A stretch of 64,000 nt of DNA, taken from assembly GCA_964374065.1 (NCBI GenBank), contig CAYJWW010000002.1, positions 4,153-68,152 of the forward strand. The letters are read 5' to 3'. The first letter of the stretch is position 1. The number at the start of each line of letters is the position of its first letter. Positions 8,830-30,414 of this stretch are shown here, in pieces. This DNA is from an uncultured Candidatus Saccharibacteria bacterium. GTDB lineage: Bacteria; Patescibacteriota; Minisyncoccia; UBA6257; 2-01-FULL-56-20. The notes beneath the pieces are model-generated. The model worked only from the letters and a program-made list of their open reading frames with translations. It was not told the DNA's origin and did no database searches. The position numbers and the translations under genes are program-made.

Positions 8830-8834
8830 TCATC

Positions 8835-10277
8835 ATGCCCTCTCTTTCCGACCTTACCATCCGCTCGCTTCGCGAGGGCCTTATGAAGAAGAAGTTCTCC
8901 GCGCGGGAGATTGCGGAGGCGTATGTCCGCGCGATCCAAGAGAAAGATCCCGAAATCCGGGCATACCTGCACGTGCGGGAAGAACAGGCGTTCGCCGAAG
9001 CGGATGGAGTGGACCGAATGATCGCGGCGGGCGACGCGCTCGGCCCTTTGGCGGGGGTACCGCTCGCCGTAAAGGACAACATGCTCCTCGAAGGGGAGGT
9101 CACCACGGCCGGTTCGCGCATCTTGGAGACGTATCGCGGCAGCTACACCGCGACCGCGGTGGCCCGGGCGCGAAGCGCCGATGCGGTCATCCTCGGCAAA
9201 ACGAATCTCGATGAATTCGCAATGGGAACGAGCACCGAGAATTCCGCGTTCTTTCCGACGAAAAATCCCCGCGACCCCGCGCGGGTGCCGGGGGGGTCAT
9301 CGGGGGGATCTGCCGCGGCGGTCGCCGCAGATATGGCGCTTGCGGCGCTGGGGTCCGATACCGGCGGCTCGATTCGGCAGCCGGCGTCCTTCTGCGGCGT
9401 CGTCGGCATCAAGCCGACCTACGGCCGCGTATCGCGCTTCGGGCTCATCGCCATGGCCTCGAGCCTCGACCAGATCGGCGCGCTTGCGAAGAACGTTTCC
9501 GATGCGCATGAAATCTTGAACGCGATCCAAGGCTATGACCCCCAGGATGCGACAAGCGCGCCGGACCGGGAAACAGCGAGAAATCTCCCTACGAAGGAAG
9601 CGAAGCATATTGCCGTGGGTATTCCAAGGGAATATTTCCCTGAAGGATTGAATATGGAAGTTTCCGACGCGGTCATGGGAACCGTACAAACGCTTCGGGA
9701 AGAGGGCATCAAGATTAAAGAAGTCTCGCTGCCGCACATGCGGTATGCGCTCTCCGCGTATTACATCATCGTGCCTGCGGAAATCAGCGCGAACCTCTCG
9801 CGCTTCGACGGCATCCGCTACGCGCGCGGAGAGAGGGCAGGAAATGCTTCGAACCTTCAAGAAATTTACTTCGCGCAAAGAGCTCTCTTTGGAGCGGAAC
9901 CGAAACGCCGGATTATACTGGGCGCATTCGTCCTCTCCTCCGGTTACTATGATGCCTATTACGCGAAGGCGCAGCGCGTGCGGGAATTAGTGCGACAAGA
10001 TTTTGCCGATGCATTCAAAGAGGTGGATGTGCTCCTTGGGCCGGTGGCGCCGAACCCCCCGTTCAAGATCGGAGAAAAGGCGAATGATCCTCTCGCGCTT
10101 TATTTGGAGGACGTCTTCACTCTGCCGGTGAACCTCGCAGGCCTTCCGGCGCTCGCGATCCCCACCGCGGTCCAAAAGCCGCTCCCCATCGGCTTCCAGC
10201 TGATCGGCAATCACTTCCGCGAGGATCAGCTGTTCTGCCTCGGAAAGTTCTACGAGAAAATCGTTTCGAGAATCTAA
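8835..10277 (+). CDS. gatA: Asp/Glu-tRNA amidotransferase subunit A (amidase family)
   Basis: 480 aa; amidase signature GGSSGGSAAAVAA; the Ser-cisSer-Lys region is conserved. Confidence 0.9.
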   Translation: MPSLSDLTIRSLREGLMKKKFSAREIAEAYVRAIQEKDPEIRAYLHVREEQAFAEADGVDRMIAAGDALGPLAGVPLAVKDNMLLEGEVTTAGSRILETYRGSYTATAVARARSADAVILGKTNLDEFAMGTSTENSAFFPTKNPRDPARVPGGSSGGSAAAVAADMALAALGSDTGGSIRQPASFCGVVGIKPTYGRVSRFGLIAMASSLDQIGALAKNVSDAHEILNAIQGYDPQDATSAPDRETARNLPTKEAKHIAVGIPREYFPEGLNMEVSDAVMGTVQTLREEGIKIKEVSLPHMRYALSAYYIIVPAEISANLSRFDGIRYARGERAGNASNLQEIYFAQRALFGAEPKRRIILGAFVLSSGYYDAYYAKAQRVRELVRQDFADAFKEVDVLLGPVAPNPPFKIGEKANDPLALYLEDVFTLPVNLAGLPALAIPTAVQKPLPIGFQLIGNHFREDQLFCLGKFYEKIVSRI

Positions 10278-13194: not shown

Positions 13195-13346
13195 GCTGCC
13201 CCTCCAGGCTAGAGAAAAATGTGAATTGCTGCCCCTAAGGTAGCGCCGATTGGGGTGCCTGTAAAGCAGGAGTAAATATCTTGCTTTGCTCGCTGATGCC
13301 GCCGTATACTTTTCGCAGTCCGTCTCATACCCACAAGGAGCGCTCC

Positions 13347-13757
13347 ATGTCCCAAACCGTCTCGCGCGGATTGCATACCGCCGCACGTTGGCGAACGCCC
13401 GCGCTCGCGCTCGCCGAACATCTCTCTCCGAAGAACCGAGGTCCGGTTCCGCAAGGAGCGGTCGCCGCCATCGAGCAGTTCTTCGATTGGGTGACTGCGG
13501 AAATCTCGCGGGGCGGGGGCGCAAAACTTTCTCGAGAGATCCCCCTCATGGGAGCCGTGTGCGCGTTGGGCATCGCGCGCGAAACCGCCGCACGCATGAA
13601 CGTGCGAAGCGCTACCATTCACCAGATTGACAGGCTCGCTCGAAGGTGCCGCTCGGTACTTCGAAAAGTGAATGCCGGTTCGCCGCTCTCGAACGCCGAG
13701 AAGCGCGAACTGCGCCGATTCCTGAACGCCCTTGCCGAGGAAGGCCTCGCTGCCTAG
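13347..13757 (+). CDS. hypothetical protein
   Basis: 137-aa ORF preceded by a strong SD AAGGAG 8 nt upstream of the ATG. No recognisable domain. Confidence 0.4.
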   Translation: MSQTVSRGLHTAARWRTPALALAEHLSPKNRGPVPQGAVAAIEQFFDWVTAEISRGGGAKLSREIPLMGAVCALGIARETAARMNVRSATIHQIDRLARRCRSVLRKVNAGSPLSNAEKRELRRFLNALAEEGLAA

Positions 13758-13803
13758 CGAGCCATTAGCCCGAACGGGCCGCATCATAGCGGCCCGCACG
13801 CAT

Positions 13804-14409
13804 TTATATGCCGATTCCGAGCCGCTTTCGATACACCGTAAAGAAGAGAAGCGTATTCGCGATGATGAGATATATCTGGAATGCGGAATTTTCGATACTC
13901 CACTCCGGTATCGACGGCACGATGAGTAATACGCTCACGAGAGCCAAAAGGTACGTGATGCCAGTCTCGGTTTCGGGGAAGCGCCAGGCCTTCCGAAGCG
14001 TCGGGAGCGATGCGAATCCGTCCCCGATCGCGAGGAGCAGAATCGCTGCGCGAGGCGATCCCGCCAAAATCCATACGGATAAGGCCACCGCGGAACAGGC
14101 GCCGCACGCGATATCGAACGCGCTCAGCTTCCAGTAGCTCCGCAAATTCCAAAATGACGCAAGGAAAACCAGAAGCGGCATGAAGCCGGCGAGGAACACG
14201 CGGACCGTGGCCCATAAGTCTGCCCCCGCGGAAATTGCCGCCGCGGTCCCGAGGATGGGAGCCAATGCCCAAAAGAACCACGATACGCGATTCGGCTTCG
14301 TCGTCCCTTTGAGCGTGTCGCGTATATATGCGGCGGAGCCCGTAATACTTATACATGCGCTTATGACGACCAGCCAATGGATGAAAGAGATTCCTGACAG
14401 CAACGACAT
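13804..14409 (-). CDS. polytopic membrane protein (hypothetical)
   Basis: 201 aa with 5-6 predicted TM helices. Confidence 0.45.
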   Translation of the reverse strand: MSLLSGISFIHWLVVISACISITGSAAYIRDTLKGTTKPNRVSWFFWALAPILGTAAAISAGADLWATVRVFLAGFMPLLVFLASFWNLRSYWKLSAFDIACGACSAVALSVWILAGSPRAAILLLAIGDGFASLPTLRKAWRFPETETGITYLLALVSVLLIVPSIPEWSIENSAFQIYLIIANTLLFFTVYRKRLGIGI

Positions 14410-14472
14410 ATCAGTGAATCATAACCTTCTTCCCGGGGCTTACCAATTTCCGTATTGTAATCAACTCCGATG

Positions 14473-14546
14473 CGCGGGCGACCGGATTTGAACCGGCAAC
14501 CTCTCCCGTGACAGGGGAGCGCTCCGCCAGGTTGAGCTACGCCCGC
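14473..14546 (-). tRNA. tRNA-Asp (anticodon GUC); CCA not encoded (3' flank is GCA)
   Basis: Cloverleaf: acceptor GCGGGCG/CGCCCGC, anticodon stem-loop CTCCC-CTGTCAC-GGGAG, T-loop TTCAAAT. Confidence 0.85.
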
Positions 14547-14583
14547 ATTAACTTAAAAATCTTACGCTATACCGAAGTAGTTT

Positions 14584-17470
<2,887 letters not shown>

Positions 17471-17516
17471 TGCAGTTTGGATTTTATCTCTAATTCTGGA
17501 TTCCATTTTCTAGATT

Positions 17517-18035
17517 CTATGTATCGAGCGTCCTCGGACTCACAGTAGTCTGTAGGTGAATAACGCTCTCGTCAACGCCGCGCTCTCGCGCGCTCACGCC
17601 CAAATTTATGACGATCCGCGGCTGCACGTTATCCCCGACCGCATTGCCGATCGGCCGGAAGGTCAGATAGCGGATATTCACGTTGTCGGCCGTGATCCGC
17701 GCGAAGGCGCCTCCTCCAACCCGCCGCTCGATCCCTCCGTCGGATACCCCGCCTCCTTTCCTGTATGTAACGACTTCACCTGCGGCATTTTTGAACGCAA
17801 GCTCATTTGAGGTGCACGTCTGACCGTTCACGCAGAAGTCAAACCCGGTCCGGACCTCCCGATTCATCTGCTCGAGCGCCAAGCTCATATTGCTGTTCGC
17901 GGAAAGGAGCGCTGAATTCTGGCGTTGCGTTTTAAGCGCGTTCACGAATCCGCCGACCGCGATCGTCACGCCAACCGAAAAAAGCGCGATCGCGACGAGC
18001 AATTCCACGAGCGTAAAGCCGCGGCGGCGTTCCAT
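17517..18035 (-). CDS. type IV pilin-like protein (minor pilin or pseudopilin)
   Basis: Class III signal MERRRG|FTLVELLVAIALFSV with cleavage Gly, Phe+1 and Glu+5; 172 aa. Confidence 0.75.
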   Translation of the reverse strand: MERRRGFTLVELLVAIALFSVGVTIAVGGFVNALKTQRQNSALLSANSNMSLALEQMNREVRTGFDFCVNGQTCTSNELAFKNAAGEVVTYRKGGGVSDGGIERRVGGGAFARITADNVNIRYLTFRPIGNAVGDNVQPRIVINLGVSARERGVDESVIHLQTTVSPRTLDT

Positions 18036-18079: not shown

Positions 18080-19372
18080 CTACGGCCTGATCTCTTTTAA
18101 TTTCCCTCCGCTTGATTCAAACGCTCGAACTGTCGTCGTGGCTGTCGCGTTCGCGCCGCCCCCCTGCCCCGCGCACGTGATCGTATAGGTGGTGGATTGG
18201 GTGGGCTGTACGGTCGTCGTGCCGTTCGCGGGGACGGAGCCGACCGCGGGAGCGATGGCGCAGGAAGAGACGCGTTCGCAGGTCCAGGAAAGGGTGGAGG
18301 ACTTGGGGGGCGGGATCACGAGGCGGTCGGGGAAGGCGGTGAAGCTCGTGCATGTGGGGGCGCAGTCCGAGGCGCGGTCGCACTCGTTGGGGCCGGAGCC
18401 GGGGATCGTGGCGCAGGAGTTGAACTGGCAGACGCGCTTCGTGCAGAGGGGCACCCGGAAGGAGGTGCTTGGGCTGTGGGCGCCGTTGAAGACTCGGGCA
18501 TAGTAGGTCACGCCGGGCTGGAGCGAGAGCGTGTCCGACTGCTGGGGCCAGATGCCCCTGAAGTTCTCTCCGTTCGTCGATTGGGAGAGAGACTGCTTGT
18601 TATAGAAGGAACCGAAGCCCGGGTCGTCGTCGATGTCCACGTAATAGCCGAAGCCGGGGTTGGGGCTGCCGGACCAGGAGATCGCGATCTGGTCGTTGTA
18701 CGGAGAGACGGTGCAGGCGGGGAGGCCGGAGACCGTGGGGCCGGAGGGAGCGTAGGAGCCTTGGGAGTAGTAGGAACCCTGGGAGTAGCCGGGAGCGTAG
18801 GTGCCTTGGGAGTAGTAGGAGCCTTGGTAGGAGCCCTGTGAGTAACCGGGAGCGTAGGTGCCTTGGGCGTAGTAGTACCCCTGGGCGTAGTAGTAACCTT
18901 GGGTGTAGTAGTACCCCTGGGCGTAGTAGTAGCCCTGGGCGTAACCGGGAGCGTAGGTGCTTTGGGCGTAGTAGTACCCCTGGGCGTAGTAATAGCCTTG
19001 GGTGTAGTAGTACCCCTGAGCATAGTAGTACCCTTGGGCGTAATAATATCCTTGGCTATAGTAATAACCCTGGCCGTAGTAATAACCTTCGGCGTAGGCC
19101 GGAGGGGGGGCGCACGCGCAATCCTGGCCAGATTGGCAATATGAGCCGCCGCACGGTTCGATATCCCAAGGCTTGTCTTCGCAATAGGGCTCGCCGTAGT
19201 CGCAGCTGCATTGAAATGATCCGAGTGGATAGCATGCGCCCTGCGGTGGGTTGACGGTCGGATCGCAATAGCCCTGCGATTCGCACGTAACCCATGTAGC
19301 CGCGAGGAGCGCATGGGGCACGCCCGCCAAAGCAAGGAGAGCAAGAACAAAAATAACGCGATCTGGTTTCAT
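18080..19372 (-). CDS. secreted Cys-rich protein with (QGYYY[AST])n Tyr/Gly repeats and two C-terminal FN3/Ig-like domains (paralog A)
   Basis: 430 aa with signal peptide MKPDRVIFVLALLALAGVPHALLA, a Cys-rich N-terminal region, about 20 GYYYAQ-type repeats, and a C-terminal ~285 aa identical to paralog B. Confidence 0.7.
   Translation of the reverse strand: MKPDRVIFVLALLALAGVPHALLAATWVTCESQGYCDPTVNPPQGACYPLGSFQCSCDYGEPYCEDKPWDIEPCGGSYCQSGQDCACAPPPAYAEGYYYGQGYYYSQGYYYAQGYYYAQGYYYTQGYYYAQGYYYAQSTYAPGYAQGYYYAQGYYYTQGYYYAQGYYYAQGTYAPGYSQGSYQGSYYSQGTYAPGYSQGSYYSQGSYAPSGPTVSGLPACTVSPYNDQIAISWSGSPNPGFGYYVDIDDDPGFGSFYNKQSLSQSTNGENFRGIWPQQSDTLSLQPGVTYYARVFNGAHSPSTSFRVPLCTKRVCQFNSCATIPGSGPNECDRASDCAPTCTSFTAFPDRLVIPPPKSSTLSWTCERVSSCAIAPAVGSVPANGTTTVQPTQSTTYTITCAGQGGGANATATTTVRAFESSGGKLKEIRP
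18084..18942. repeat. direct repeat copy 1 (about 859 bp, essentially 100% identical to 20853-21711)
   Basis: The ORF-track artefact ORFs 18117-18383, 18189-18503 and 18197-18841 have translations identical to those at +2769. Flanks were checked by eye. Confidence 0.9.
18760..19095. repeat. in-frame tandem array of about 18-nt units encoding GYYY[AST]Q within paralog A
   Basis: Reiterated gcgtagtagta(c/g)cc(c/t)tggg units on the plus strand. Confidence 0.8.
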
Positions 19373-19929
19373 TGATTGGAAGGATATGCGGTGATTGAAA
19401 AACTCGTGGAGCTTGCTTCTTGAGCGAGAACCATATCGACACGCACAAGGAAACTCTCGTCTTGAATGACGAGGACTGCCGAATCCTTCGTGTTCCTTCC
19501 CTCCCGAAATTTATACCCAGCGCCCGCCGCCAATCCTCTCACTTGATCGCGCGCCCCTACCACGTCCGAAGCGAGTCTCACAAACACGACGTAGCCCCTC
19601 TTACCATCTTCAAATGTCGCCGAGAATGCTTGGGTTGATGTCCCATTCCCCGGAACGAGCGCGAGGAGCGAATTCGGGGCGGCATCCAAACCGACCTCCA
19701 TCCTATTTAAAACTTTTGGCATCTGGGTTTTCCCTACGCTCTGAAGAAGATCTACGGATTTTGTCGGGGAAAGCGGCGCATCGGCTGAACCTTTCGGGTT
19801 CGAATTTTTGACCGGCAATCCTCCTTGAATGCGAAAAATGAGATAGATGACCGCCGCGGCTGCGATCAGTCCGATAACAATCGTGGTCTCTTTTTGCTTT
19901 CCGCCGGACGCTTTTTGAAGCTCGAGCAT
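19369..19929 (-). CDS. membrane-anchored hypothetical protein, translationally coupled to repeat protein A
   Basis: 186 aa with an N-terminal TM helix (IVIGLIAAAAVIYLIF). Its stop overlaps the start of 18080..19372 by 4 nt. Confidence 0.5.
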   Translation of the reverse strand: MLELQKASGGKQKETTIVIGLIAAAAVIYLIFRIQGGLPVKNSNPKGSADAPLSPTKSVDLLQSVGKTQMPKVLNRMEVGLDAAPNSLLALVPGNGTSTQAFSATFEDGKRGYVVFVRLASDVVGARDQVRGLAAGAGYKFREGRNTKDSAVLVIQDESFLVRVDMVLAQEASSTSFSITAYPSNQ

Positions 19930-20006
19930 TGCGACAATTATACTTCGTTCCGCGCGCCCTGCGAAGAAGGTTTAAGGGAGGCCTTGTGGCCTCCCTTCGG
20001 GAGATT

Positions 20007-20750
20007 CTAGTCCGGAACCCAGACGGTTTTGCCGGACACGGCGTACGCGACCTGCGAAGGGTCCGTGTTTTTGATCACGCCCCACCAGATCCCGGCAGGA
20101 CTTCGGGAGAGCCGCACATCCGGCGGGTTTCCCGTCATCGTCCCCCATGTCCACCCGGTGAACTGGGTACAAGCGGGCCCGAAAGCGCTTCCCGATCCGC
20201 GGGAACCCTCCGGGATGAGCGCGCAGGCTCTCGCATCCTCCTCTCGTGCAAAGAGGTAGAGGTCCTTCCGGATCGGAGAGCGGCTCGTAATCAGTTGGAA
20301 CTTGAGCGTCCCCCGTTCCACGGCCGGTGTCGCCGGAAAAACCATGGCTCCGCCAGCCGCAAGCGTCGTTGTGGGAATTACGGTCTCGAACGGATTTTCC
20401 GCAACGACGGGGGCAAGCGCTACATTCTGTTCCGAGGCAGGAATGGTAAGAGTCCAATCCTGAGTCACGAATCCGGGCTTTTCGAACTGGATCCTGCTCT
20501 CGCCTCCCGGAACCCCGCTTATGACGTATCTCCCGTCAGATGCGGTCTTCGCAGCAAGTCCCATGCCGGCGCCGGAGACGAGAGACACGTTTACCTCGCC
20601 CAGCGGTTCGTTCGTCGCGGCGCTCCGCACTATGCCGCGCACCTCATGAAACTGCGTGGGGCTTGTCGGACCATCTTTTCTGCCGCACGCGGTCAAGGCC
20701 GCGAGAAGCAGAACGGCGCGTATCGCGTGCAAGCGCATTCTTGTCCTCAC
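20007..20750 (-). CDS. lipoprotein with a carboxypeptidase-regulatory-like (CarboxypepD_reg) beta-sandwich domain
   Basis: Lipobox LAALTAC, motif DGRYVISGVPGGESRIQFEKPGF; SD AAGGAGG lies upstream. Confidence 0.6.
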   Translation of the reverse strand: MRTRMRLHAIRAVLLLAALTACGRKDGPTSPTQFHEVRGIVRSAATNEPLGEVNVSLVSGAGMGLAAKTASDGRYVISGVPGGESRIQFEKPGFVTQDWTLTIPASEQNVALAPVVAENPFETVIPTTTLAAGGAMVFPATPAVERGTLKFQLITSRSPIRKDLYLFAREEDARACALIPEGSRGSGSAFGPACTQFTGWTWGTMTGNPPDVRLSRSPAGIWWGVIKNTDPSQVAYAVSGKTVWVPD

Positions 20751-20796
20751 GGCACCCTCCTTGTATGGTATTCACGTGTTGCGTTTCGCTGAAAAC

Positions 20797-20825
20797 ATTA
20801 TACGAAATAATCTGCTTTAACGCAA
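20797..20825 (-). promoter_or_regulatory. candidate sigma70 promoter for the lipoprotein gene (minus strand: TTGCGT, 17-nt spacer, TATAAT)
   Basis: Reverse complement of 20797-20825 reads TTGCGTtaaagcagattatttcgTATAAT, about 50 nt upstream of the start codon. Confidence 0.35.
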
Positions 20826-20842
20826 GGCAGACTTTTATGCTC

Positions 20843-22375
20843 CTACTGTCCGGGCCTGATCTCTTTTAATTTCCCTCCGCTTGATTCAAACGCTCGAACT
20901 GTCGTCGTGGCTGTCGCGTTCGCGCCGCCCCCCTGCCCCGCGCACGTGATCGTATAGGTGGTGGATTGGGTGGGCTGTACGGTCGTCGTGCCGTTCGCGG
21001 GGACGGAGCCGACCGCGGGAGCGATGGCGCAGGAAGAGACGCGTTCGCAGGTCCAGGAAAGGGTGGAGGACTTGGGGGGCGGGATCACGAGGCGGTCGGG
21101 GAAGGCGGTGAAGCTCGTGCATGTGGGGGCGCAGTCCGAGGCGCGGTCGCACTCGTTGGGGCCGGAGCCGGGGATCGTGGCGCAGGAGTTGAACTGGCAG
21201 ACGCGCTTCGTGCAGAGGGGCACCCGGAAGGAGGTGCTTGGGCTGTGGGCGCCGTTGAAGACTCGGGCATAGTAGGTCACGCCGGGCTGGAGCGAGAGCG
21301 TGTCCGACTGCTGGGGCCAGATGCCCCTGAAGTTCTCTCCGTTCGTCGATTGGGAGAGAGACTGCTTGTTATAGAAGGAACCGAAGCCCGGGTCGTCGTC
21401 GATGTCCACGTAATAGCCGAAGCCGGGGTTGGGGCTGCCGGACCAGGAGATCGCGATCTGGTCGTTGTACGGAGAGACGGTGCAGGCGGGGAGGCCGGAG
21501 ACCGTGGGGCCGGAGGGAGCGTAGGAGCCTTGGGAGTAGTAGGAACCCTGGGAGTAGCCGGGAGCGTAGGTGCCTTGGGAGTAGTAGGAGCCTTGGTAGG
21601 AGCCCTGTGAGTAACCGGGAGCGTAGGTGCCTTGGGCGTAGTAGTACCCCTGGGCGTAGTAGTAACCTTGGGTGTAGTAGTACCCCTGGGCGTAGTAGTA
21701 GCCCTGGGCGTAGTAGTAGCCTTGGCTGTAGCCGCAACCGTAGCAGCCCTCCGCATAGTAATAGCCTTGTCCGTAGTAATAGCCCTCTGTGTAGTAATAC
21801 CCTTGGGCATAGTAATAGCCCTCAGCATAGTAGTAGCCTTGAGTATAGTAGTAGCCTTGAGCATAATAGTAGCCCTCCCCATAATAGTAGCCTTCGCTGT
21901 AGTCTGGATAGAAGCCGGTGATGCTCACATCCACCCGCACTTCGGCGTCATCCACGGCCGCCCATGTATAAATCCCGTATCTTCCGACTCCTCCTGTCCC
22001 CTCGCTTCCGCTTGTATACCCGTTGTACGGATGGACCCCTCCATACTCGTAGCCGCAACTGCCCCCAGAGCAGTTGAACCAATAGCACTGCCCCGCGCCG
22101 TCGGACTGCCGGGACCAACACGCGACGGACTGAATATACGAACCGCCGTGGCGATGGCCGCTTATATTGTAGGAAAATTCCGCGGAACCGTAGTTGTCCC
22201 GCGGGAGCCACTCCCAATTCCCGCCGCAATTTCTATCGTCTCCGTGCTTGATGCAAAGCCAATAAAAACTCGTGCTGTCGCTCCCCGCGCGCGCCACGTA
22301 GGGCACGGCGATCGACATCGCCACCGCGGACACTGCGACGAATATCAGTGCTACCTTGGTCTGCGCGGTATTCAT
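20843..22375 (-). CDS. secreted protein with (QGYYY[AST])n Tyr/Gly repeats and two C-terminal FN3/Ig-like domains (paralog B)
   Basis: 510 aa with signal peptide MNTAQTKVALIFVAVSAVAMSIAVPYVARA, a distinct N-terminal domain, a long EGYYYAQGYYYT... repeat array, and a C-terminal ~285 aa identical to paralog A. Confidence 0.7.
   Translation of the reverse strand: MNTAQTKVALIFVAVSAVAMSIAVPYVARAGSDSTSFYWLCIKHGDDRNCGGNWEWLPRDNYGSAEFSYNISGHRHGGSYIQSVACWSRQSDGAGQCYWFNCSGGSCGYEYGGVHPYNGYTSGSEGTGGVGRYGIYTWAAVDDAEVRVDVSITGFYPDYSEGYYYGEGYYYAQGYYYTQGYYYAEGYYYAQGYYYTEGYYYGQGYYYAEGCYGCGYSQGYYYAQGYYYAQGYYYTQGYYYAQGYYYAQGTYAPGYSQGSYQGSYYSQGTYAPGYSQGSYYSQGSYAPSGPTVSGLPACTVSPYNDQIAISWSGSPNPGFGYYVDIDDDPGFGSFYNKQSLSQSTNGENFRGIWPQQSDTLSLQPGVTYYARVFNGAHSPSTSFRVPLCTKRVCQFNSCATIPGSGPNECDRASDCAPTCTSFTAFPDRLVIPPPKSSTLSWTCERVSSCAIAPAVGSVPANGTTTVQPTQSTTYTITCAGQGGGANATATTTVRAFESSGGKLKEIRPGQ
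20853..21711. repeat. direct repeat copy 2 (about 859 bp)
   Basis: See copy 1; the constant offset is 2769 nt. Confidence 0.9.
21530..21905. repeat. in-frame tandem array of about 18-nt units encoding GYYY[AST]Q within paralog B
   Basis: Reiterated gtagtagta(g/c)cc(c/t)tg(g/a)g(c/t) units on the plus strand. Confidence 0.8.
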
Positions 22376-22884
22376 TCCCTCGAAGGCGGGGTGATGATGC
22401 GATATGTCACTACCGATGCGACCGGGTTGCTCGACCGGTATATCGTTGCGGGGAATGCCGCCTCAACGGAGACGCCGCCGGCGCCGATCATGGACCGGAG
22501 ATCATCCAAGGACCCTGTGGCATCATTCCGCGGGAGGTCGGCCAGACTCAAGGTGCCGGTCGCGCCGCGCGCGGCAAGCTCTTTCCATGAAGGAAGTTGA
22601 AGCCCGATCTTTTTATACGAGGTCCCTTCCCCGACGCGGAAGGTAAACTCCCGCGATTCCAGGAGATCTTGCGGCGCAACGCCCTGCAGCTCGTAGACGC
22701 CCTTCAGCGTAATCGCGTCGCCCTCTATTCTCAGGGGGCTTCCGATGAATTTTCTGATCTCTATCGGTTTTCGCGTCGAAACAAAATAGCCGCTTCCGAT
22801 CAGGAACAATCCGGCGGTTGCGGCGGCCACCATCACAAGATTCCGCACCGCCAGCTTCTTCTTCGATGCCGCGAAATCATCCAT
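22372..22884 (-). CDS. membrane-anchored hypothetical protein, translationally coupled to repeat protein B
   Basis: 170 aa with an N-terminal TM helix (LVMVAAATAGLFLIGSGYFV). Its stop overlaps the start of 20843..22375 by 4 nt. Confidence 0.5.
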   Translation of the reverse strand: MDDFAASKKKLAVRNLVMVAAATAGLFLIGSGYFVSTRKPIEIRKFIGSPLRIEGDAITLKGVYELQGVAPQDLLESREFTFRVGEGTSYKKIGLQLPSWKELAARGATGTLSLADLPRNDATGSLDDLRSMIGAGGVSVEAAFPATIYRSSNPVASVVTYRIITPPSRE

Positions 22885-22936
22885 ATATTGATTATAGGCG
22901 AAATGGTGCGGGCCGCAATGGATGCGGCCCGGCTGT

Positions 22937-23569
22937 TTATTGCGATACGACTCGTAATCCCAACATCACGCGCCAATCGGTGGGCACGAGGAGATCCTGG
23001 CCGCTCTCATTGAAGCGCGCCGTGGCCTGGGCGGTGTTCGTCACGCCTCCGCTCGGGAGCGCCATGTCGAAGACGACCGCGATGCAGACGGGCGAGCGCC
23101 ACGCGGGGTCGCTCTCATCGAAGGGCGGTCCCTGCGTTCCTGCAGTCCGCCCAACGGCACTGAGCTGCATGGAAATCTTCCGGCCGGGAACGGCGGGATG
23201 GGCCACGCAAAGGCGGACCGTGTGTGTATCGCGATGACTCCGCAACAGATACGTCTTCTCTGTCCCGGGAACTCCGAGAGAAGCGTCGTCTGTGGGCGAA
23301 AGCTCTCGCGTGCAGGCCGCGGGATCATTCGGACAATTCCCTTCATAGACCCCGTACGTTGCCGAAGCGCGCACGCCGGGACCGGGTCCCGGCGGAAGAT
23401 TCCCCGGTCCGACCGGCCCCTGCACGCACGAGGGCCCCGTGGGAGTTCCGATGCAGTTCGGGCTCTTGTCCTCCTTCTTGCCGCAGCCCGAACCGAGGGT
23501 CCCGAAGGCGAGCGCGAGCGCGGAGGCGAGAAGCACGCTCCGCGTCCGCCCGAGTTCCGTATGACGCAT
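22937..23569 (-). CDS. putative secreted protein or lipoprotein (Cys- and Gly/Pro-rich)
   Basis: Start chosen at MRHTELG, preceded by AGGAGG. Signal peptide followed by LGSGC; 211 aa. The longer 331-aa ORF is judged to be upstream read-through. Confidence 0.5.
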   Translation of the reverse strand: MRHTELGRTRSVLLASALALAFGTLGSGCGKKEDKSPNCIGTPTGPSCVQGPVGPGNLPPGPGPGVRASATYGVYEGNCPNDPAACTRELSPTDDASLGVPGTEKTYLLRSHRDTHTVRLCVAHPAVPGRKISMQLSAVGRTAGTQGPPFDESDPAWRSPVCIAVVFDMALPSGGVTNTAQATARFNESGQDLLVPTDWRVMLGLRVVSQ

Positions 23570-23658
23570 GGCGCCTCCTATCTCTCGGATCCCCGAGAAT
23601 GCCGACGTGCCGTTCGCTGCTGCCGCAACTATACTACAGGCCGCTCCCGGCGCCAACC

Positions 23659-24198
23659 CTAGTTCTGCGGCCGCCAATTGAAGAAATGGTCCTCGAGATT
23701 GATGTCGTATTCTCCGCCGCGGCTTGACCAAGAAACAATGGAGTTCACCTTGATCTCGTTCCCGCCCACGAGTGCGACGCGGATGGTCCGCGTAAAGGGC
23801 GTCACGACCGAACCGCCGTAGCTGTAGAGGTTCTGCGACGGATCGAAAAGGAGGAACCTGCTCTGCGTCGCTTCCAAGAGCGCGCTTGCATACTGCACTT
23901 CGAAATCCCCGTTCGAGAAACCGCTGTTCCACGGGCGGTTCTGGATTACGTTCGTATCGATGATATTCTTCACCACCTCGAGTCCCTCGGCCGCGAGATA
24001 CGTCGCAGTGTAATTATCGGATACGACGCGATTCAGGCTGATCGAACGCGAAAGAAGAGTGAGAATGCCCAAAAAGCCGACGGTCAAAATCCCCAGCGCG
24101 ACGAGCGATTCGACGACGACTTGCCCCCGGCGCGCCCGTCGGCGCGCAGAAAATGGAAAATAGAAAGCGGAAAGCGGAAAACGGCGCGTTTGTTCCAT
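23659..24198 (-). CDS. type IV pilin-like protein with a long basic leader (MEQTRRFPLSAFYFPFSARRRARRG|QVVVE...)
   Basis: Gly-Gln junction with Glu at +5 followed by a hydrophobic helix; 179 aa. Its 5' module is shared with 17048..17470. Confidence 0.55.
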   Translation of the reverse strand: MEQTRRFPLSAFYFPFSARRRARRGQVVVESLVALGILTVGFLGILTLLSRSISLNRVVSDNYTATYLAAEGLEVVKNIIDTNVIQNRPWNSGFSNGDFEVQYASALLEATQSRFLLFDPSQNLYSYGGSVVTPFTRTIRVALVGGNEIKVNSIVSWSSRGGEYDINLEDHFFNWRPQN

Positions 24199-24254
24199 TG
24201 CAGTTTGGATTTTGTCTCTAATTCTGGATTCTATTTTCTAGGCTCTAGATTCTA
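24124..24254. repeat. conserved ~125-nt 5' module, copy 2
   Basis: Same sequence as copy 1 with a 7-nt internal duplication (tctaggctctag). Confidence 0.85.
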
Positions 24255-24821
24255 AAATGTGATCTGCCCCGCCGTGCTTACCCGGATCGTTATCGAGGCC
24301 GACCCGTCCGCGGTTTGGAGATAAATATTCCCGCTCCCTCCCGGCAATAGCGACCCCCCGCTCGAGATGTATGTTTTTGGTTCCGGCGGCACAAAGAGCA
24401 CCGCGTCGAGCCGGTTCGCTCCGTTGCCGTACGCCACGGCCTGAGTCAACGGGAACGATTCGAGCCTGGTGTATTTGGAACCGTCGGCGGGGTCGATCGC
24501 GGAAATGCTCGAGCAGTCGCTCACCTTATATTGGAACAGTTCGTATGAGTTCCCGGCGTAGTCGACTCGGAAACCGAACCCACAGGGACGCGAGGCATCC
24601 ACATAGGTGGCAATCGCCATCGATTTGGACTTCAGGATCAGCTGCGCGATCTTTGCTTCTTCGGTATAGAGCGCAACCTGCGCGCGCCCCGTCGACGAGT
24701 AGAGAATGAGCGAACTCGAGAGGATGCCCATGATGCCTACGACGATCAGAAGTTCGAGGAGCGTGTAGCCGCGGCGAGAAGAACGGAAGTTTTGGCGTGG
24801 AATTCGGCGGAATGCGCTCAC
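24252..24821 (-). CDS. type IV pilin-like protein (pseudopilin)
   Basis: SSRRG|YTLLELLIVVGIMGIL class III signal; 189 aa. Confidence 0.75.
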   Translation of the reverse strand: MSAFRRIPRQNFRSSRRGYTLLELLIVVGIMGILSSSLILYSSTGRAQVALYTEEAKIAQLILKSKSMAIATYVDASRPCGFGFRVDYAGNSYELFQYKVSDCSSISAIDPADGSKYTRLESFPLTQAVAYGNGANRLDAVLFVPPEPKTYISSGGSLLPGGSGNIYLQTADGSASITIRVSTAGQITF

Positions 24822-24855
24822 GCGTCCATTCTATCACAAGAGCCCCGCAGAGAAC

Positions 24856-25656
24856 TTACCACAGTCCGCCAAAAAGCATCTGCGCGATCTGATTGCCGAA
24901 AAGAAAGACGATGAGCGCTGCGAGAGAGAGGAATGGCCCGAAGGGAAGCGCCGTTTTCCGCGTTGCCCGACCGCCGGTCATCATGCCGAGCCCAATGACC
25001 GCTCCCAATATGAAGGCGAGCATTAGAATAAAGGGGGTTGCCGGCCAGCCGAAAAGCAATCCCAGCGCCGCGCCGAATTTCACGTCCCCCATGCCCATCC
25101 CCTTCCCCCGCGTCGCCGCGATAAGCGCTCCGAAAAACGCCGCCGCGAAAATCGCGCCGTAGATGCGGGGGATGATACTCCCGAGGATGCCGCTTCCTCC
25201 GCCCGTAAGCGCGAGAAACGCGGCGAGAACCCCGAGAAAAATGACGAGCTCGTCGGGAATGAGCCGCAGCCGCAGATCGATGAGTGAAATGAGGAGCAGT
25301 ATAAGGAACACGAGGAGCCAGAAAAACTGCGGAATGGCCGCGGCCGCTCCGAATGAAACGCGGGCCGCGACCGCGTGGGGTATGACCACAAAAAGCGCGC
25401 CGGCGATGATCTCGACGAGCGGATAGGCAAAAGAGAGCCGTTTTTTACATCTGCGACATTCCCCTTTCTGCGCGAGGAAACTCAAAAGCGGAATGAGCTC
25501 GAACCAGCGAAGCGTGCGGCGACATGAGGCGCACGCCGATCTTCCGAACACGATGTCCCGCCGGATTATGAAACGGTCCGGATCGTACCGATCGGCGATG
25601 ACCTTAAGGAAACTCCCGACGGCCGCACCAAGGAAAAATTGCAGAACGTAAGTCAC
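24856..25656 (-). CDS. pilD: prepilin peptidase (A24 family)
   Basis: N-terminal CxxC...CxxC zinc-binding pairs, 8-TM topology and the GMGDVKF catalytic Asp motif; 266 aa. Confidence 0.85.
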   Translation of the reverse strand: MTYVLQFFLGAAVGSFLKVIADRYDPDRFIIRRDIVFGRSACASCRRTLRWFELIPLLSFLAQKGECRRCKKRLSFAYPLVEIIAGALFVVIPHAVAARVSFGAAAAIPQFFWLLVFLILLLISLIDLRLRLIPDELVIFLGVLAAFLALTGGGSGILGSIIPRIYGAIFAAAFFGALIAATRGKGMGMGDVKFGAALGLLFGWPATPFILMLAFILGAVIGLGMMTGGRATRKTALPFGPFLSLAALIVFLFGNQIAQMLFGGLW

Positions 25657-25716
25657 GAATAAAAAATCAAATCGGGGCTCGCGCCCTGACTATGACATTC
25701 CTGTGCGCGCTCGACC

Positions 25717-26187
25717 CTAGAAAATGATGCAGTAGATCGTATCGGATGCCGCCGTGCCGCAATCGGTGTTCCCGTAGTTCGATTGCGTGCCGTCGATATC
25801 CGTCCGGAGCGCGGGGTTGTTCCCGTCTTCGAGGTCGGCTCTCAGAAGGTACCCGTTGCGGCTCGTGTTCGGCGCATAGGTGTAATTCCTATTCGAGTTA
25901 GGATCGTTAGGAATCTTGTTCACGCCAATCGTGGCGCTCACAAGGTCGGTCTCAAGCGCCGCCCACGTGGCCGAGTTCGGGTATTGGCCGTTCTTCTGGA
26001 AGTAAAGCTCCAGCGCGGTCTGTACCTGTTTCAAGTCCGCAATGCGCCGCGCGTCCCGGCCAGTCCGCTGGGTGGGGCCCAGCCCCACGAGCACGATCGA
26101 CGCCAGAACACCGATGATCGCGACCACGATCAGCATTTCGATGAGCGTAAACCCCTGCTTCTGCTCCGAATTTTTCATCGCTTTCAT
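25717..26187 (-). CDS. type IV pilin (probable major pilin)
   Basis: MKAMKNSEQKQG|FTLIEMLIVVAIIGVLASIV is a canonical class III signal. Start chosen at M15 of the 170-aa ORF. C-terminal Cys pair (TDCG...YCIIF). Confidence 0.8.
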   Translation of the reverse strand: MKAMKNSEQKQGFTLIEMLIVVAIIGVLASIVLVGLGPTQRTGRDARRIADLKQVQTALELYFQKNGQYPNSATWAALETDLVSATIGVNKIPNDPNSNRNYTYAPNTSRNGYLLRADLEDGNNPALRTDIDGTQSNYGNTDCGTAASDTIYCIIF

Positions 26188-26304
26188 TGTACGTTTTATC
26201 ATACCATACCGCCAATCGTTCTTTTCCACAGCCCCTCCAGCCTGGAACCTGAAACCCGGAACAGGATACGAAAGGTGCGGTTTTACGAACTATGTCCTGC
26301 TTCG

Positions 26305-26353
26305 TGATTCACGATTCACGATTCAGGATTCAGGATTCAGGATTCAGGATTCA
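26305..26353. repeat. tandem heptanucleotide repeat (GATTCAS)x7 between the pilC stop and the pilin gene
   Basis: gattcac x2, gattcag x4 and gattcat x1, perfectly contiguous, about 120-165 nt upstream of the pilin start codon on the coding strand. Confidence 0.9.
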
Positions 26354-26358
26354 TGGCC

Positions 26359-27570
26359 CTACTGGATCGTCGCCGTAAGCTGATAGAGCGGCAGAAGAAT
26401 AGAGGCGAAGAGGAGGGCGATGAGCCCGCCGATGCCGATCATGAGGATCGGCTGGATAAGCTCGACCAGATTGTTGATCACGGTATCCGACTCCCTGTTA
26501 TAGAACGTGGCGATCCGGAGGAAAATCTGGTCCAGCTGTCCGGTCGCTTCTCCCACCGCGACCATTTGGGAGACAAGCTGGGGGAAATAATCGGGGTGCG
26601 CGGCGATCGCTTCCGAGAGGAGTTTCCCCTGCCGCACGCCCTGGGAAACATCGTGAAGCATATCCCTATAGAGGACGTTATCCACTGTCTCCGCCACGAT
26701 CTCCATCGCTTGCGCGACGGGCACTCCGCCCTTCACGAGCATCGCCGAAGCGTTCGCGAACCGCGCGATGGTCACGGGAAGGTATATTCGGCTGATCACC
26801 GGCAGGCGCACCTTCATATCGTCCTTGAACCCCATCCCTTCCGGCGTCTGGAAGTAGTCAAGGATCATCACGACGGAAATAATGATGACGAGGACGATCG
26901 CGGGCCACCAGCGGGCGAAGAAATCGCCGCTCCCTATCAAGACCTTGCTGATCAGCGGGAGTTGCACGCCCGATTGATCGAAAACCGGCTGTATCTGCGG
27001 GAACACCATCGTCACCATAATCACCGCGACGACGAGAAAGAGCGAGACGACGATCGCGGGGTAGATGAGCGCCGAGCGCGCCTTGGTGACAAGCACCGCT
27101 TCGCGTTCGGTGTAATCCGCGAGGAAGCCGGCGACTTGGTCCAAATTCCCCGTAACCTCCGCGGACCGGACCATGCTCACGAAGAATTCGGAAAATATCC
27201 CCCCTTGCCGCTCGAGCGCCTGCGAAAAAGCGAGCCCTGCATCAATGTCCGTCGCGATCTGGTAGACCGCCTCTTTGAGTATTGGATTCGTCGTCTGATC
27301 GTGGAGCGTCGTGAGCGCCTTGTTGAGCGATAGCCGCGCCTCGAGCAGCGTGGCGAGCTGCCGAGTGAGGATGACCATATCCTGCCTCCGAACGGCGCGG
27401 TAATAGCGCGCGATCCGGTCGTACCAGTGAGTCGTCTCGGTAGATTCGAGCTTGAGGATATAGAGGTCGTGGCTGGATAAGATGTTGACCGCGGCATCCT
27501 TCCCCCCGGCTTCCACAAAACCCACCTGAAGTTCTCCCTCCTTGGTTTTCGCTTGATATTTGAATTTCAT
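26359..27570 (-). CDS. pilC: type IV pilus assembly platform protein (GspF/PilC family)
   Basis: 403 aa; duplicated T2SF domains and three TM segments. Confidence 0.85.
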   Translation of the reverse strand: MKFKYQAKTKEGELQVGFVEAGGKDAAVNILSSHDLYILKLESTETTHWYDRIARYYRAVRRQDMVILTRQLATLLEARLSLNKALTTLHDQTTNPILKEAVYQIATDIDAGLAFSQALERQGGIFSEFFVSMVRSAEVTGNLDQVAGFLADYTEREAVLVTKARSALIYPAIVVSLFLVVAVIMVTMVFPQIQPVFDQSGVQLPLISKVLIGSGDFFARWWPAIVLVIIISVVMILDYFQTPEGMGFKDDMKVRLPVISRIYLPVTIARFANASAMLVKGGVPVAQAMEIVAETVDNVLYRDMLHDVSQGVRQGKLLSEAIAAHPDYFPQLVSQMVAVGEATGQLDQIFLRIATFYNRESDTVINNLVELIQPILMIGIGGLIALLFASILLPLYQLTATIQ

Positions 27571-27577
27571 GCGCCCG

Positions 27578-28651
27578 CTACACTCTTTCGAGCAGGATCC
27601 GCAGCTCTCCTGGATTCAGCGAATAGAGCTCCGCGCTCTCCATCGAGATCTCTTTGCTCTTGATAAGGTTCACGAGCGAGCGGTTCAGGGTCATCATCCC
27701 CTCCTGAAGAGACGTTTCGATCACGAGGTCGATCTGGTAGACCTTCCGCTCGCGGACCAGGTTCCGGATCGCGGCGTTCACGATCATGATCTCCATCGCG
27801 GGGATCCGGCCGCCCGAGAGGCGCGGCATGAGCCGGATCGAGACGATCGCGACCAAGGTCGCCGCGAGCTGGGAGACCACCTGCCCCTGCTGTTCGGCGG
27901 GGAAGGAATCGATGATGCGGTCGATCGTCTGCGAGGCGGAATTCGTGTGGAGCGTGGAGAACACCAAGTGTCCGGTCTCCGCCGCGGTCATCGCGGTCGA
28001 GATGGAGATCGCGTCGCGCATCTCGCCCAACATGATGACGTCCGGGTCCTGCCGCAAGATCGTGCGGAGTCCCGCTTGGAACGTCGGCACATCCACTCCC
28101 ACTTCCCGCTGGGAGACGATCGCCCTGTCCTGCGTGAAGAGATATTCTATCGGGTCTTCGATCGTGATGATGTGGTCCGCGCGAGCGTGGTTGATCTCAT
28201 CCAGAAGCGCCGCGAGCGTCGTGGACTTCCCGTGGCCGGCGGGTCCCACGACGAGAATGAACCCTTGCGAAAGCTTTGCGAAGTCGTGGAGGATCGGCGG
28301 AAGCATGAGTTCCTCGAGGCTGCGGATCCTCCCCGGGATCAGCCGGAGCGCCGCGGCCGGATAGCCGCGCTGGTAATAGACGTTCACGCGGAACCTTGCC
28401 TTATCTTCGAAGCTGTATGCAAAATCGATCTGCTTGTTCTTTGAAAGCTTTTCTTTTTGGTCGTCATTCAGCAAAACCGTGATGAGTCCTTCGGCGCCCT
28501 CCGGAGTGAGCAGTTCTTCCTTCTGTATCGGAACAAGCACGCCGTCGATGCGGAGCATTGGGCGCCTCCCCACCGAAAGGTGGAGGTCCGAAGCGTTCTG
28601 TTTCGCCGTGGTTACCAACAGCTCTTTTAATCTTTCTGCGTAGTTCGTCAT
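27578..28651 (-). CDS. pilT: twitching-motility (retraction) ATPase PilT
   Basis: Walker A GPAGHGKSTT, PilT Asp box, His box; 357 aa. Confidence 0.85.
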   Translation of the reverse strand: MTNYAERLKELLVTTAKQNASDLHLSVGRRPMLRIDGVLVPIQKEELLTPEGAEGLITVLLNDDQKEKLSKNKQIDFAYSFEDKARFRVNVYYQRGYPAAALRLIPGRIRSLEELMLPPILHDFAKLSQGFILVVGPAGHGKSTTLAALLDEINHARADHIITIEDPIEYLFTQDRAIVSQREVGVDVPTFQAGLRTILRQDPDVIMLGEMRDAISISTAMTAAETGHLVFSTLHTNSASQTIDRIIDSFPAEQQGQVVSQLAATLVAIVSIRLMPRLSGGRIPAMEIMIVNAAIRNLVRERKVYQIDLVIETSLQEGMMTLNRSLVNLIKSKEISMESAELYSLNPGELRILLERV

Positions 28652-28680
28652 ATCAGTTCAATTGTTCCATCATAACACAA

Positions 28681-30414
28681 CTACCCGAGAATATTTTCTT
28701 CGGTGCTTCGGAACACCTCCTCCATCGCCACTTGTCCTTCGAGCGCCTTCAGCACGCCGTCGCCGCGAAGATCGATCATCCCCTGCGCTTTCGCTTCCTT
28801 CAAGATTTTCTGCAGCGAGGGCGCGGATTGGATGACTGCTTCGAGTCCGGGTGTCATCTGGAGCACCTCATAGATCGCGATGCGTCCTACGACTCCCCGA
28901 TTATTGCATTTCGCGCAACCCTCGGCGTGAAATATCATGTACGGTTCCTTGTATTTTCCCGCCAGCTCCGGAGGGAGCCCTTCCAACGCCTTGCGGATCG
29001 CCTGCGCGAGCGGAGGAGGCGCTTCGTCTGAGCGTTTACAGCCCGGGCATAGAAGTCCCACCAGCCGCTGAGACAGCAAAAGATTCAAAGTCACGGGCAG
29101 CAAGAACGGCTCTATTTTCATGTCCAAGAGGCGCGGGATCACGCCGGCGGCATTATTCGTGTGGAGCGTGGAAAGCACGATGTGGCCCGTGAGCGCCGCC
29201 TGCACGGCGAGCGCCGCCGTCTCGTTGTCGCGGATCTCGCCCACCATTATCACGTCCGGGTCCTGCCGCAAAATCTGCCGCAGGCCGGAAGCGAAATCGT
29301 ACCCGATCTCGGGACGCACTTGCGACTGATTCACGCCCGACACGAAATATTCCACCGGATCTTCGAGGCTCACGATATTCACGTTCTCCTTGTTTAGCGT
29401 CTGCAGGAGCGCGTAGAGCGTCGTGGTCTTCCCGGAACCGGTGGGGCCGGTGATCAAGATCATACCGAAGGGTTTTTCGAGGCCGGCCTGGACGATCTCT
29501 AAGTTTTTGCCTACGAGCCCCAAGTCATTGAAGCTTTTAAGGCCCGTTGTGGGGTCGAGCACTCGAATCGCGACTTTTTCGCCCAAGGGCGTAGGGAAAG
29601 TTGCGACGCGGAAATCCACTTCGCGGTCGAGTATCCGCGCGCGGAATCGTCCGTCCTGCGGGACCCGCGTCTCATCGATCTTCAGGCTCGAGAGCACTTT
29701 GATGCGCGAGACGACCGGTTGCGCCAACTGGAGCGGCAGCGCCGCGCCTTCCTGCAAATCTCCGTCAATCCGGAACCTGATCCGGAGGTGCGTTTGCTGC
29801 GGCTCTATATGAATGTCGGATGCGCCATTCTGCGTCGCTTCCTTAAGCGTATCTGAGACGATCTTGATAATCGGCGCTTCTTCCCCGCCTTTCATTGACT
29901 CGTCCTCGAGTTGAACGATCCGCCTTCCCGCCTCGCCTTTCACTTGCACGGAACGGACCGCGGCTTCGATGGAACTTTTATACGGAGAGTATCGCCGGAG
30001 AATCTCCTGCCAATCGCCCCACCCGATGAGATATATGCCCAAGGTAACGCGCGAACGGTTCGCGATGAACTTAAGGGCTTCCTGGGCCTTTACATCGTCG
30101 GGGTTCACCATCCCCGCGATAAGCATTTCCCCCTGCTGCGCCAAGGGCGCCACCCCGTATGTTCTCACCGTTTCCTCGGGGATCAATTCGATAACCTTGG
30201 GATCGTATCCCTCGAAGTTTACTTTTTGGTAGGGCACACCGAGTATCTGGCTTTTGACCTCGGCGATTTTCGCATCATCCAGAAGCCCTCGGTCATGGAT
30301 CAGGTCTTCCGCGCTCCTGCCGGAGAGGAGCGCTTCTCGCTTCAGCTTGACAATAGCGTTCGGTTCGAGAAGTCGCCGCGATTGGAGTTCATTGAAGAGC
30401 TGGTCGGAGGTCAT
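28681..30414 (-). CDS. pilB: type IV pilus assembly (extension) ATPase PilB/GspE
   Basis: 577 aa; GSPII-E N-domain, Walker A GPTGSGKTTT and a tetra-Cys motif CPGC...CAKC. Confidence 0.85.
   Translation of the reverse strand: MTSDQLFNELQSRRLLEPNAIVKLKREALLSGRSAEDLIHDRGLLDDAKIAEVKSQILGVPYQKVNFEGYDPKVIELIPEETVRTYGVAPLAQQGEMLIAGMVNPDDVKAQEALKFIANRSRVTLGIYLIGWGDWQEILRRYSPYKSSIEAAVRSVQVKGEAGRRIVQLEDESMKGGEEAPIIKIVSDTLKEATQNGASDIHIEPQQTHLRIRFRIDGDLQEGAALPLQLAQPVVSRIKVLSSLKIDETRVPQDGRFRARILDREVDFRVATFPTPLGEKVAIRVLDPTTGLKSFNDLGLVGKNLEIVQAGLEKPFGMILITGPTGSGKTTTLYALLQTLNKENVNIVSLEDPVEYFVSGVNQSQVRPEIGYDFASGLRQILRQDPDVIMVGEIRDNETAALAVQAALTGHIVLSTLHTNNAAGVIPRLLDMKIEPFLLPVTLNLLLSQRLVGLLCPGCKRSDEAPPPLAQAIRKALEGLPPELAGKYKEPYMIFHAEGCAKCNNRGVVGRIAIYEVLQMTPGLEAVIQSAPSLQKILKEAKAQGMIDLRGDGVLKALEGQVAMEEVFRSTEENILG

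Follow-up and report, generated by a model that had tools for sequence, protein, structure and literature searches.

By analogy, the phenomenon described here comes closest to one known from Helicobacter pylori, in which the 3′ segments of the outer-membrane adhesin paralogs babA/babB and homA/homB undergo concerted evolution. The 3′ segments of these genes resemble each other within a strain, the 5′ or middle parts have separate histories, and chimeras arise by RecA-dependent conversion (Pride & Blaser 2002, reviewed in PMC3960876). Here we analyse two genes, A and B, of an uncultured Candidatus Saccharibacteria bacterium, which lie next to each other in a type IV pilus cluster and have identical 3′ ends. 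They are located on a stretch of 64,000 nucleotides (nt) of contig CAYJWW010000002.1 (assembly GCA_964374065.1, positions 4,153 to 68,152), which we refer to as the window; all coordinates follow the numbering of the window, and (−) denotes its minus strand. The identical 3′ ends probably stem from recent gene conversion of a common C-terminal module between two surface-protein paralogs of the pilus cluster, and this conversion may have been recurrent. Few surface machines are conserved in Patescibacteria, and type IV pili are one of them. If conversion is real, it marks the part of the protein that must stay constant as opposed to the part that is free to vary.

Homogenization of the 3′ parts of paralogous surface-protein genes is already known; here it is seen in an uncharacterized protein family. 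As for bab and hom, the genes encode paralogous surface proteins of one genome, their C-terminal, putatively anchoring 3′ parts have probably been homogenized by intragenomic recombination and their 5′, putatively ligand-binding parts differ; in H. pylori, chimeras and copy-number changes result. In contrast to bab and hom, the shared segments of A and B lie in neighbouring genes of a pilus cluster, as direct repeats spaced 2.8 kb apart, rather than at distant loci, and they encode a β-sandwich module and a tail rather than an outer-membrane β-barrel. Furthermore, the N-terminal parts of A and B, which we term heads, are unrelated rather than allelic, and the identity of the shared part is perfect in the assembled sequence. 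Concerted evolution is defined by between-strain comparison, and the likeness of A and B to bab and hom is known from one genome only. Within that genome, the two paralogs contain one segment that is far more alike than its neighbours.

Other comparisons come from pilus loci. Neisseria has two PilC paralogs, PilC1 and PilC2. In Saccharibacteria, the β-propeller minor pilin PilX2 is a candidate adhesin, and the pili of cultivated Patescibacteria mediate attachment to host bacteria (PMC11623550). Like the tip adhesins PilC1/PilC2 and PilY1 of Pseudomonas, which are not pilins, and like PilX2, A and B are large proteins encoded among minor-pilin genes, with a conserved C-terminal and a variable N-terminal part. 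However, A and B have neither the β-propeller domain of PilY1/PilC (as judged by Pfam and NCBIfam; AlphaFold2 (AF2) shows β-sandwich domains) nor a pilin-type signal peptide, and they are therefore not members of the PilY1/PilC or PilX2 families. Unlike for PilY1/PilC, the only link of A and B to pili is gene position, and the same module also occurs away from pilus genes. In the pilE/pilS system of Neisseria, the silent cassettes are promoterless and it is the variable part of pilin that is changed. The A/B locus resembles this system in that a surface protein encoded at a pilus locus would be altered when repeated gene segments recombine non-reciprocally. In contrast to pilE/pilS, it is the constant part that was copied, and A and B are both complete, which excludes a silent-cassette system of the pilE/pilS type.

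An exact 860-nt repeat and its junctions

Gene A (18080..19372, −) encodes a secreted protein of 430 amino acids (aa) that comprises a Sec-type signal peptide, a Cys-rich head, an array of GYYYxQ units, an FN3-like domain, a Cys-rich linker, an Ig-like domain and a tail that ends in ..GGKLKEIRP. The product of gene B (20843..22375, −) is likewise secreted and has 510 aa. It starts with a Sec-type signal peptide and carries a Cys-rich head unlike that of A (residues 1-160), array units of its own (GYYYxE/Q), the tract shared with A and an extra Gly-Gln (GQ). A base-by-base comparison at an offset of 2769 nt revealed that positions 18084-18943 are exactly identical to positions 20853-21712, over 860 nt and in direct orientation. 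A previous sequence-only reading of this DNA had described an identical direct repeat of about 859 bp ending at 21711 and a spacing of 2769 nt. The exact repeat and the spacing are confirmed, and the length and the end of the repeat are each shifted by one base. Copy 1 (18084..18943, −) corresponds to the last 286 codons of gene A, which encode part of the Tyr-rich array and the C-terminal module; copy 2 (20853..21712, −) corresponds to codons 222-508 of gene B. The same pair was reported by a repeat finder (family D3), both in the region and in the whole 64-kb window, where it is the sole long repeat; inverted repeats were found in neither. There are 0 N bases in the window, and an exact match of 860 nt is not attributable to chance.

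At the 3′ edge of the tract (in the coding sense), the last identical base is the second base of the final common Pro codon. Gene A ends in ..GAG ATC AGG CCG TAG and gene B in ..GAG ATC AGG CCC GGA CAG TAG; past the common Pro, gene A stops and gene B adds Gly-Gln before its stop codon. The 100 nt downstream of the two copies align no better than shuffled sequences (score 14 versus a shuffle mean of 14.7), and the roughly 10 nt of identical 3′ flank that had been proposed do not exist, since identity ends within the last shared codon. The 5′ edge (18943 in gene A) lies inside an 18-nt tandem array coding for GYYYxQ. Directly upstream of the tract, the arrays of the two genes match at 110 of 144 nt (76%) in a gapless alignment (19103-18959 vs 21908-21764). 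Upstream of the arrays, the heads of A and B score 20 at the DNA level versus a shuffle mean of 18, and no similarity between them was detected at the protein level. The identity profile of the two genes is stepwise, falling from 100% over 860 nt to 76% in the upstream array and then to chance level.

This profile is best explained by gene conversion that homogenizes the C-terminal module beneath different heads, one of the two origins that the sequence-only reading had put forward. The other, a very recent duplication of the genes, is contradicted, because only 860 of the 2769 nt are related and the rest is at chance level. Nor are the 5′ halves and the partner genes merely diverged, as had been stated: the heads are at shuffle level and the partners yield a BLASTP E value of 7, which means that they are not detectably related. 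A tandem duplication of the whole unit is ruled out, with 1909 of the 2769 nt unrelated between the units. The unique segment of 1909 nt that separates the copies (18944..20852, −) contains the head of A, partner A, lipoprotein 1 and the 3′ intergenic region of B. It was also obtained as a separate contig in two independent runs.

To provide an independent check of the assembly, we located the exact lipoprotein 1 sequence on Logan contigs (k=31) from two other runs. Contig L013 (ERR3478686, 1894 nt) corresponds to window positions 20882..18989 and contig L014 (ERR4904390, 1005 nt) to 20882..19878; both begin exactly 30 nt (k−1) inside copy 2. When the window was simulated as a de Bruijn graph with k=31, the predicted unitigs were 18084-18943, 18914-20882 and 20853-21712, and the contig of the unique segment stops at 20882 if and only if the first k-mer of the tract has two different neighbours in the reads. 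The Logan contigs lead without a break from the ending specific to gene B (Gly-Gln-stop) into lipoprotein 1, partner A and the head of A. L013 departs from the window 7 nt before its end, where the upstream array of A (..18996) is joined to a tract-internal unit (18896..). This junction (L013 1860-1894; window 18896-18996) is located inside the 23-nt repeat CAGGGGTACTACTACACCCAAGG. L013 represents an allele of gene A that lacks one 99-nt (33-aa) array unit, and the contig ends 30 nt into shared sequence. This allele demonstrates that the array at the 5′ edge of the tract is length-polymorphic and recombines in nature. All four junctions are present in the raw data of independent runs; the junctions are real, given that the Logan contigs stop k−1 inside copy 2 and that L013 joins the array of A to tract-type sequence.

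Probable gene conversion and alternative explanations

The array of gene A upstream of the tract is 9-24% diverged: it is 76% identical to the upstream array of B, and its 99-nt unit is 91% identical to that of the tract. The paralogy of gene A hence predates the identity of the tract, and because its diverged array pre-existed, homologous sequence was replaced rather than newly fused. The repeat with its step-like edges, the architecture of the genes, the synteny and the junctions at read level are observed; from them we infer the following mechanism. Two cassettes, each probably transcribed independently, adjoin in a slot of the type IV pilus cluster that varies among relatives, and a very recent, non-reciprocal homologous recombination would have copied the 3′ part of one gene over that of the other. 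One end of this event would lie in the repetitive array and the other at the limit of homology, the stop codon. The shared rear module would form a common anchoring or docking part, and the heads would be the interchangeable, variable and ligand-facing parts. The direct repeats could also mediate loss or amplification of the 2769-nt unit; a deletion would remove the 1909-nt segment together with one copy of the repeat. If conversion is real, it predicts deletion and duplication variants of 2769 nt that can be searched for in existing read sets. Deletion between the tracts, which had been suggested before, is a legitimate prediction; the inversion suggested alongside it is impossible, because both copies are in direct orientation and there are no inverted repeats.

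That conversion may have been recurrent is suggested by the high G+C content at third codon positions (GC3). The GC3 of repeat copy 1 is 0.857, and that of the shared module (18086-18748, 20855-21517) is 0.869. The heads of the two genes have lower values (0.615 and 0.683), and the genes of the window have a median of 0.68. Only 0.8% of 221-codon windows in other genes reach a GC3 of 0.869. Five relatives yielded the module at a single site per locus; in these, GC3 does not rise to a similar degree, its shift in the C-terminal part ranging from −0.08 to +0.12. The high GC3 of the module is suggestive of a footprint of GC-biased gene conversion.

Several points weigh against gene conversion as proposed here. 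First, pilT is also GC3-rich (0.81) and high GC3 may reflect expression level, which is why the GC3 evidence is suggestive only. Second, a second strain of this organism was not found, and the closest homologs of the module reach 35-45% amino-acid identity. Third, proteins with the module that are encoded away from pilus genes (on contigs L003-L005, see below) weaken any pilus-docking role. Fourth, the set of junctions fits a tandem arrangement and, equally, a single chromosomal copy plus a 2769-nt circle. Finally, the perfect identity in the interior of the tract could be a consensus that an assembler or polisher made of near-identical copies.

The latter point leads to the main rival explanation, in which the copies are only nearly identical (for example 97-99.9%), assembly or polishing wrote one consensus twice, and homogenization is older or weaker than it appears. 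An exact repeat of 860 nt exceeds the length of short reads, so assemblers place one unitig twice, and the Logan assemblies break at the repeat. To this extent the assembly artefact considered in the sequence-only reading retains some force: the interior identity may be a consensus, but the junctions are present in the contigs of two independent runs. Furthermore, the edges of the tract are sharp and biologically sensible (the array and the stop codon), and the k−1 ends of the Logan contigs match the window boundary to the base. The adjacent array has only 76% identity, so that even near-identical copies would still call for conversion in the recent past. We regard a consensus of this kind as unlikely on balance.

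A partial duplication or domain shuffle, in which illegitimate or array-mediated recombination put an 860-nt 3′ fragment onto a previously unrelated gene and thereby created a new chimera, would rationalize why the heads, the partner genes and the 3′ flanks have nothing in common and why the tract terminates exactly where the coding sequence does. However, gene A owns a diverged GYYYxQ array upstream of the tract, which means that the recipient was already a paralog and makes a one-off fusion to an unrelated gene less likely than replacement. The parallel layout of the cassettes likewise points to old paralogy, and we consider such a shuffle quite improbable.

A wrong topology of the contig is very unlikely. 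In this case, the chromosome would carry one gene (head of B, tract, pilin-172), and the 2769-nt unit would be a separate circle or would belong to another strain, having been threaded in by the assembler. The four read junctions are the same for a tandem and for a single copy plus a circle, and the slot holds 0-2 cassettes in relatives. A circle is nevertheless made unlikely by the 2769-nt unit having no replication or mobility gene; in addition, the submitter's 112-kb contig runs through both copies, and contigs of two independent runs connect the distinct stop context of B (GQ-stop) to lipoprotein 1 without a break. Programmed antigenic variation, with an expression locus, silent cassettes and the tract as a constant recombination handle, is hardly credible: a constant segment is indeed common to genes with different variable parts that encode surface-exposed proteins in a pilus locus, but A and B are each complete, with a start codon, a signal peptide, a coupled partner and a promoter-like site of their own, and a promoterless partial cassette and a third copy are both absent within the 64 kb.

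The shared C-terminal module and the Tyr-rich arrays

The more interesting by-products of the analysis are the protein family, its Tyr-rich array and conserved tail, and the variable slot in a pilus cluster of the candidate phyla radiation. Pfam and NCBIfam assigned no family to protein A or protein B, and exact-protein look-ups of the two matched no record. The region common to A and B after the array spans 222 aa and can be divided into four parts. The first is a domain with the signature ISW-G-PNP-FG-Y-D-DDP-F..K...L.L....Y..RV.N, followed by a Cys-rich linker of variable length, an Ig-like unit (RLVIPPP..S.L.W.C) and an extreme C-terminal tail.

An AF2 model of the module, built from a four-sequence alignment, has a predicted local distance difference test score (pLDDT) of 80-90 for the first domain (residues 1-100). 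In a Foldseek search of the PDB, the best matches to this domain were FN3 structures (tencon, FN3con and fibronectin), with probabilities of up to 1.0 and target template modelling scores of 0.5-0.59, none of them reaching E <= 1e-3. The FN3-like Pfam family Pur_ac_phosph_N matched at a sub-threshold E value of 0.083. It is plausible, but not established, that the first domain of the module is FN3-like; for this domain, the best structural matches agree with the earlier description of the C-terminal domains as FN3-like.

An exhaustive profile search with the 222 aa produced 4131 hits among representative proteins, nearly all of which cover only residues ~130-210. These residues form the Ig-like unit of ~75 aa (..S.L.W.C....C.I...G.V...G...V.P..TT.YT..C.G.GG), which occurs in up to 47 copies per protein in giant proteins. 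The unit is what A and B have in common with the multi-repeat Ig-like/FN3 surface proteins of uncultivated bacteria. In contrast to those proteins, A and B contain it as a single, C-terminal copy, located behind the FN3-like domain and the Cys-rich linker and before the conserved tail. The whole module is covered only by P0111 (823 aa); P0102 (704 aa) aligns in two stretches and P0119 in part, and the identity of these three proteins to the module is 44-46%. Pattern scans with the C-terminal module returned nothing but distant Ig-like matches in genome contigs and zero matches in metagenome contigs, and they revealed no close relative with the tract.

Behind the last Ig-like domain comes the tail, G-x-[LI]-[KI]-E-[IV]-x-P, which is encoded at 18083-18106 in A and 20846-20875 in B. 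It also ends P0111, P0102, P0164, P0165, P0166, L007_829 and L011_757, with 0-3 residues beyond the Pro and no transmembrane (TM) segment behind it, and it is in no Pfam or NCBIfam model. The conserved tail could be a sorting or docking signal. On L003-L005, the pilin motif is absent within 10 kb of the genes for module-bearing proteins, which rules out that the module is tied exclusively to pili. In these organisms, the module thus serves surface proteins in general as a C-terminal device; in this sub-lineage, it was recruited to a variable slot of the pilus cluster. More speculatively, the module and its tail (G-x-L-K-E-I-x-P) might represent a lineage-specific docking device by which ultrasmall episymbiotic bacteria mount interchangeable heads on their type IV pilus or beside it, with the tract being kept homogeneous by recurrent GC-biased conversion and serving as a handle for gaining, losing or swapping heads in the slot. 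We consider this proposal doubtful; if it were true, it would amount to a recombination-driven change of host or surface specificity.

The Tyr-rich arrays consist of hexapeptides of the form GYYY[ATGS][QE]. Each protein has 12-14 GYYYxQ/E units as well as GSYYSQ variants, and the Tyr content of A and B is 13.5-14%. In gene A, the array (18746..19097, −) has a period of 18 nt and a 99-nt higher-order unit that is present in 2.2 copies at 91% identity. In gene B (21515..21892, −), the portion upstream of 21712 is the one that is 76% identical to the upstream array of A. AF2 renders the arrays as β-hairpins at low confidence (pLDDT 55-64), and they match no family; candidate roles are those of a stalk, in cross-linking or as an amyloid-like element. 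The single-sequence AF2 model of the whole protein A is poor (pLDDT 46). A class III signal peptide or N_methyl motif is not present in A or B, the motif scan picking only four neighbouring pilin genes.

Two cassettes in a variable slot of the pilus cluster

The cassettes are preceded by a block of seven genes of the cluster (23659..30414, −) in the order PilB (28681-30414, −), PilT (27578-28651, −), PilC (26359-27570, −), a pilin (25717-26229, −), PilD (24856-25656, −), another pilin (24252-24821, −) and a PilV-like protein (23659-24198, −). These are followed, all on the minus strand, by lipoprotein 2, partner B and gene B, then by lipoprotein 1, partner A and gene A, and finally by a pilin-like gene (pilin-172), a 152-aa pilin-like protein (p152) and LigA. 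Pilin-172 (17517..18035, −; 172 aa) carries an N_methyl motif, lies directly downstream of gene A and is a conserved anchor of synteny. A and B are thus encoded among minor pilin genes, with the PilV-like protein and a pilin on one side and pilin-172 and p152 on the other, and relatives have large proteins at the same or a neighbouring position.

The locus consists of two parallel three-gene cassettes, each comprising a lipoprotein, a TM partner and a translationally coupled secreted protein, and the only part common to the two cassettes is the rear of the last gene. Lipoprotein 1 (20007..20750, −; 247 aa) is located between the repeat copies; it has a lipobox and a CarboxypepD_reg domain, and AAGGAGG is found upstream of its GTG start. 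Lipoprotein 2 (22937..23575, −; ~212 aa) lies upstream of partner B, its inferred start being an internal Met before the lipobox ..LGSGCGKK. Both partner A (19369..19929, −; 186 aa) and partner B (22372..22884, −; 170 aa) have an N-terminal TM helix, and the stop codon of each overlaps the ATG of gene A or gene B, respectively, by 4 nt. The exact partner A protein is also found in NCBI and Logan sources. The two lipoproteins are unrelated at the BLASTP level, as are the two partners, and homology within either pair was rejected at that level. In front of partner genes A and B (19930-20006 and 22885-22936, respectively), a GC-rich hairpin is followed by TATAAT and then by 7 nt and 6 nt, respectively, to the ATG. 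This spacing resembles the arrangement of leaderless mRNAs.

Pilin-172 matches the source, a 112,204-nt NCBI contig, at 100%, and its other homologs are at most 61% identical. The contigs around them retain the synteny PilM, two PilN/PilO-sized genes, a short open reading frame (ORF), PilB, PilT, PilC, pilin, PilD, pil189-like, PilV-like, slot, pilin-172, p152 and LigA. The content of the slot varies. In L006 and L009/L010, it holds no large protein. The P0111 contig has one partner (167 aa) and one 823-aa protein in the slot, and L007 has a TM partner, a lipoprotein and an 829-aa protein (7444-9933) directly before the pilin. This 829-aa protein resembles P0111 in its head and is 35% identical to the module over its last ~125 aa. 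L011/L012 have no large protein in the slot; instead, two large proteins (962 and 757 aa) are encoded between the orthologs of pilin-172 and p152 (11817-16983). The 757-aa protein of L011 (14710-16983) ends in an Ig-like unit and the tail; the 962-aa protein does not. These tandem proteins of L011/L012, at their neighbouring position outside the slot, share an internal region of 218 aa at 43% identity and have no identical tracts. The number of cassettes per slot is 2 in the window and 0 or 1 in relatives, with the L011/L012 pair at the neighbouring position. Conservation of the C-terminal module in relatives amounts to 35-45%, and their heads are different. The cassette proteins, which have no assigned family, represent a conserved rear module under unrelated heads in a pilus-cluster slot of 0, 1 or 2 cassettes.

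Two weaker repeats are present in the cluster. A direct repeat of 129 nt at 88% identity (17391-17519 vs 24119-24247) covers the upstream region and the unusually long leader of the 152-aa and the PilV-like 179-aa minor-pilin-like genes, and might represent another, older segment shared by these genes or else a regulatory or leader element that they have in common. A repeat of 60 nt at 83% identity (28013-28072 vs 29227-29286) links the PilT and PilB genes and reflects ordinary conservation of paralogous ATPase cores. Directly 3′ of ligA, a free-standing LAGLIDADG ORF (14584-14994) overlaps the ligA stop codon by 4 nt and lies in a low-GC patch (0.40). A LAGLIDADG domain is also found in an intein that splits the gene for UDP-glucose dehydrogenase (41268-44069).

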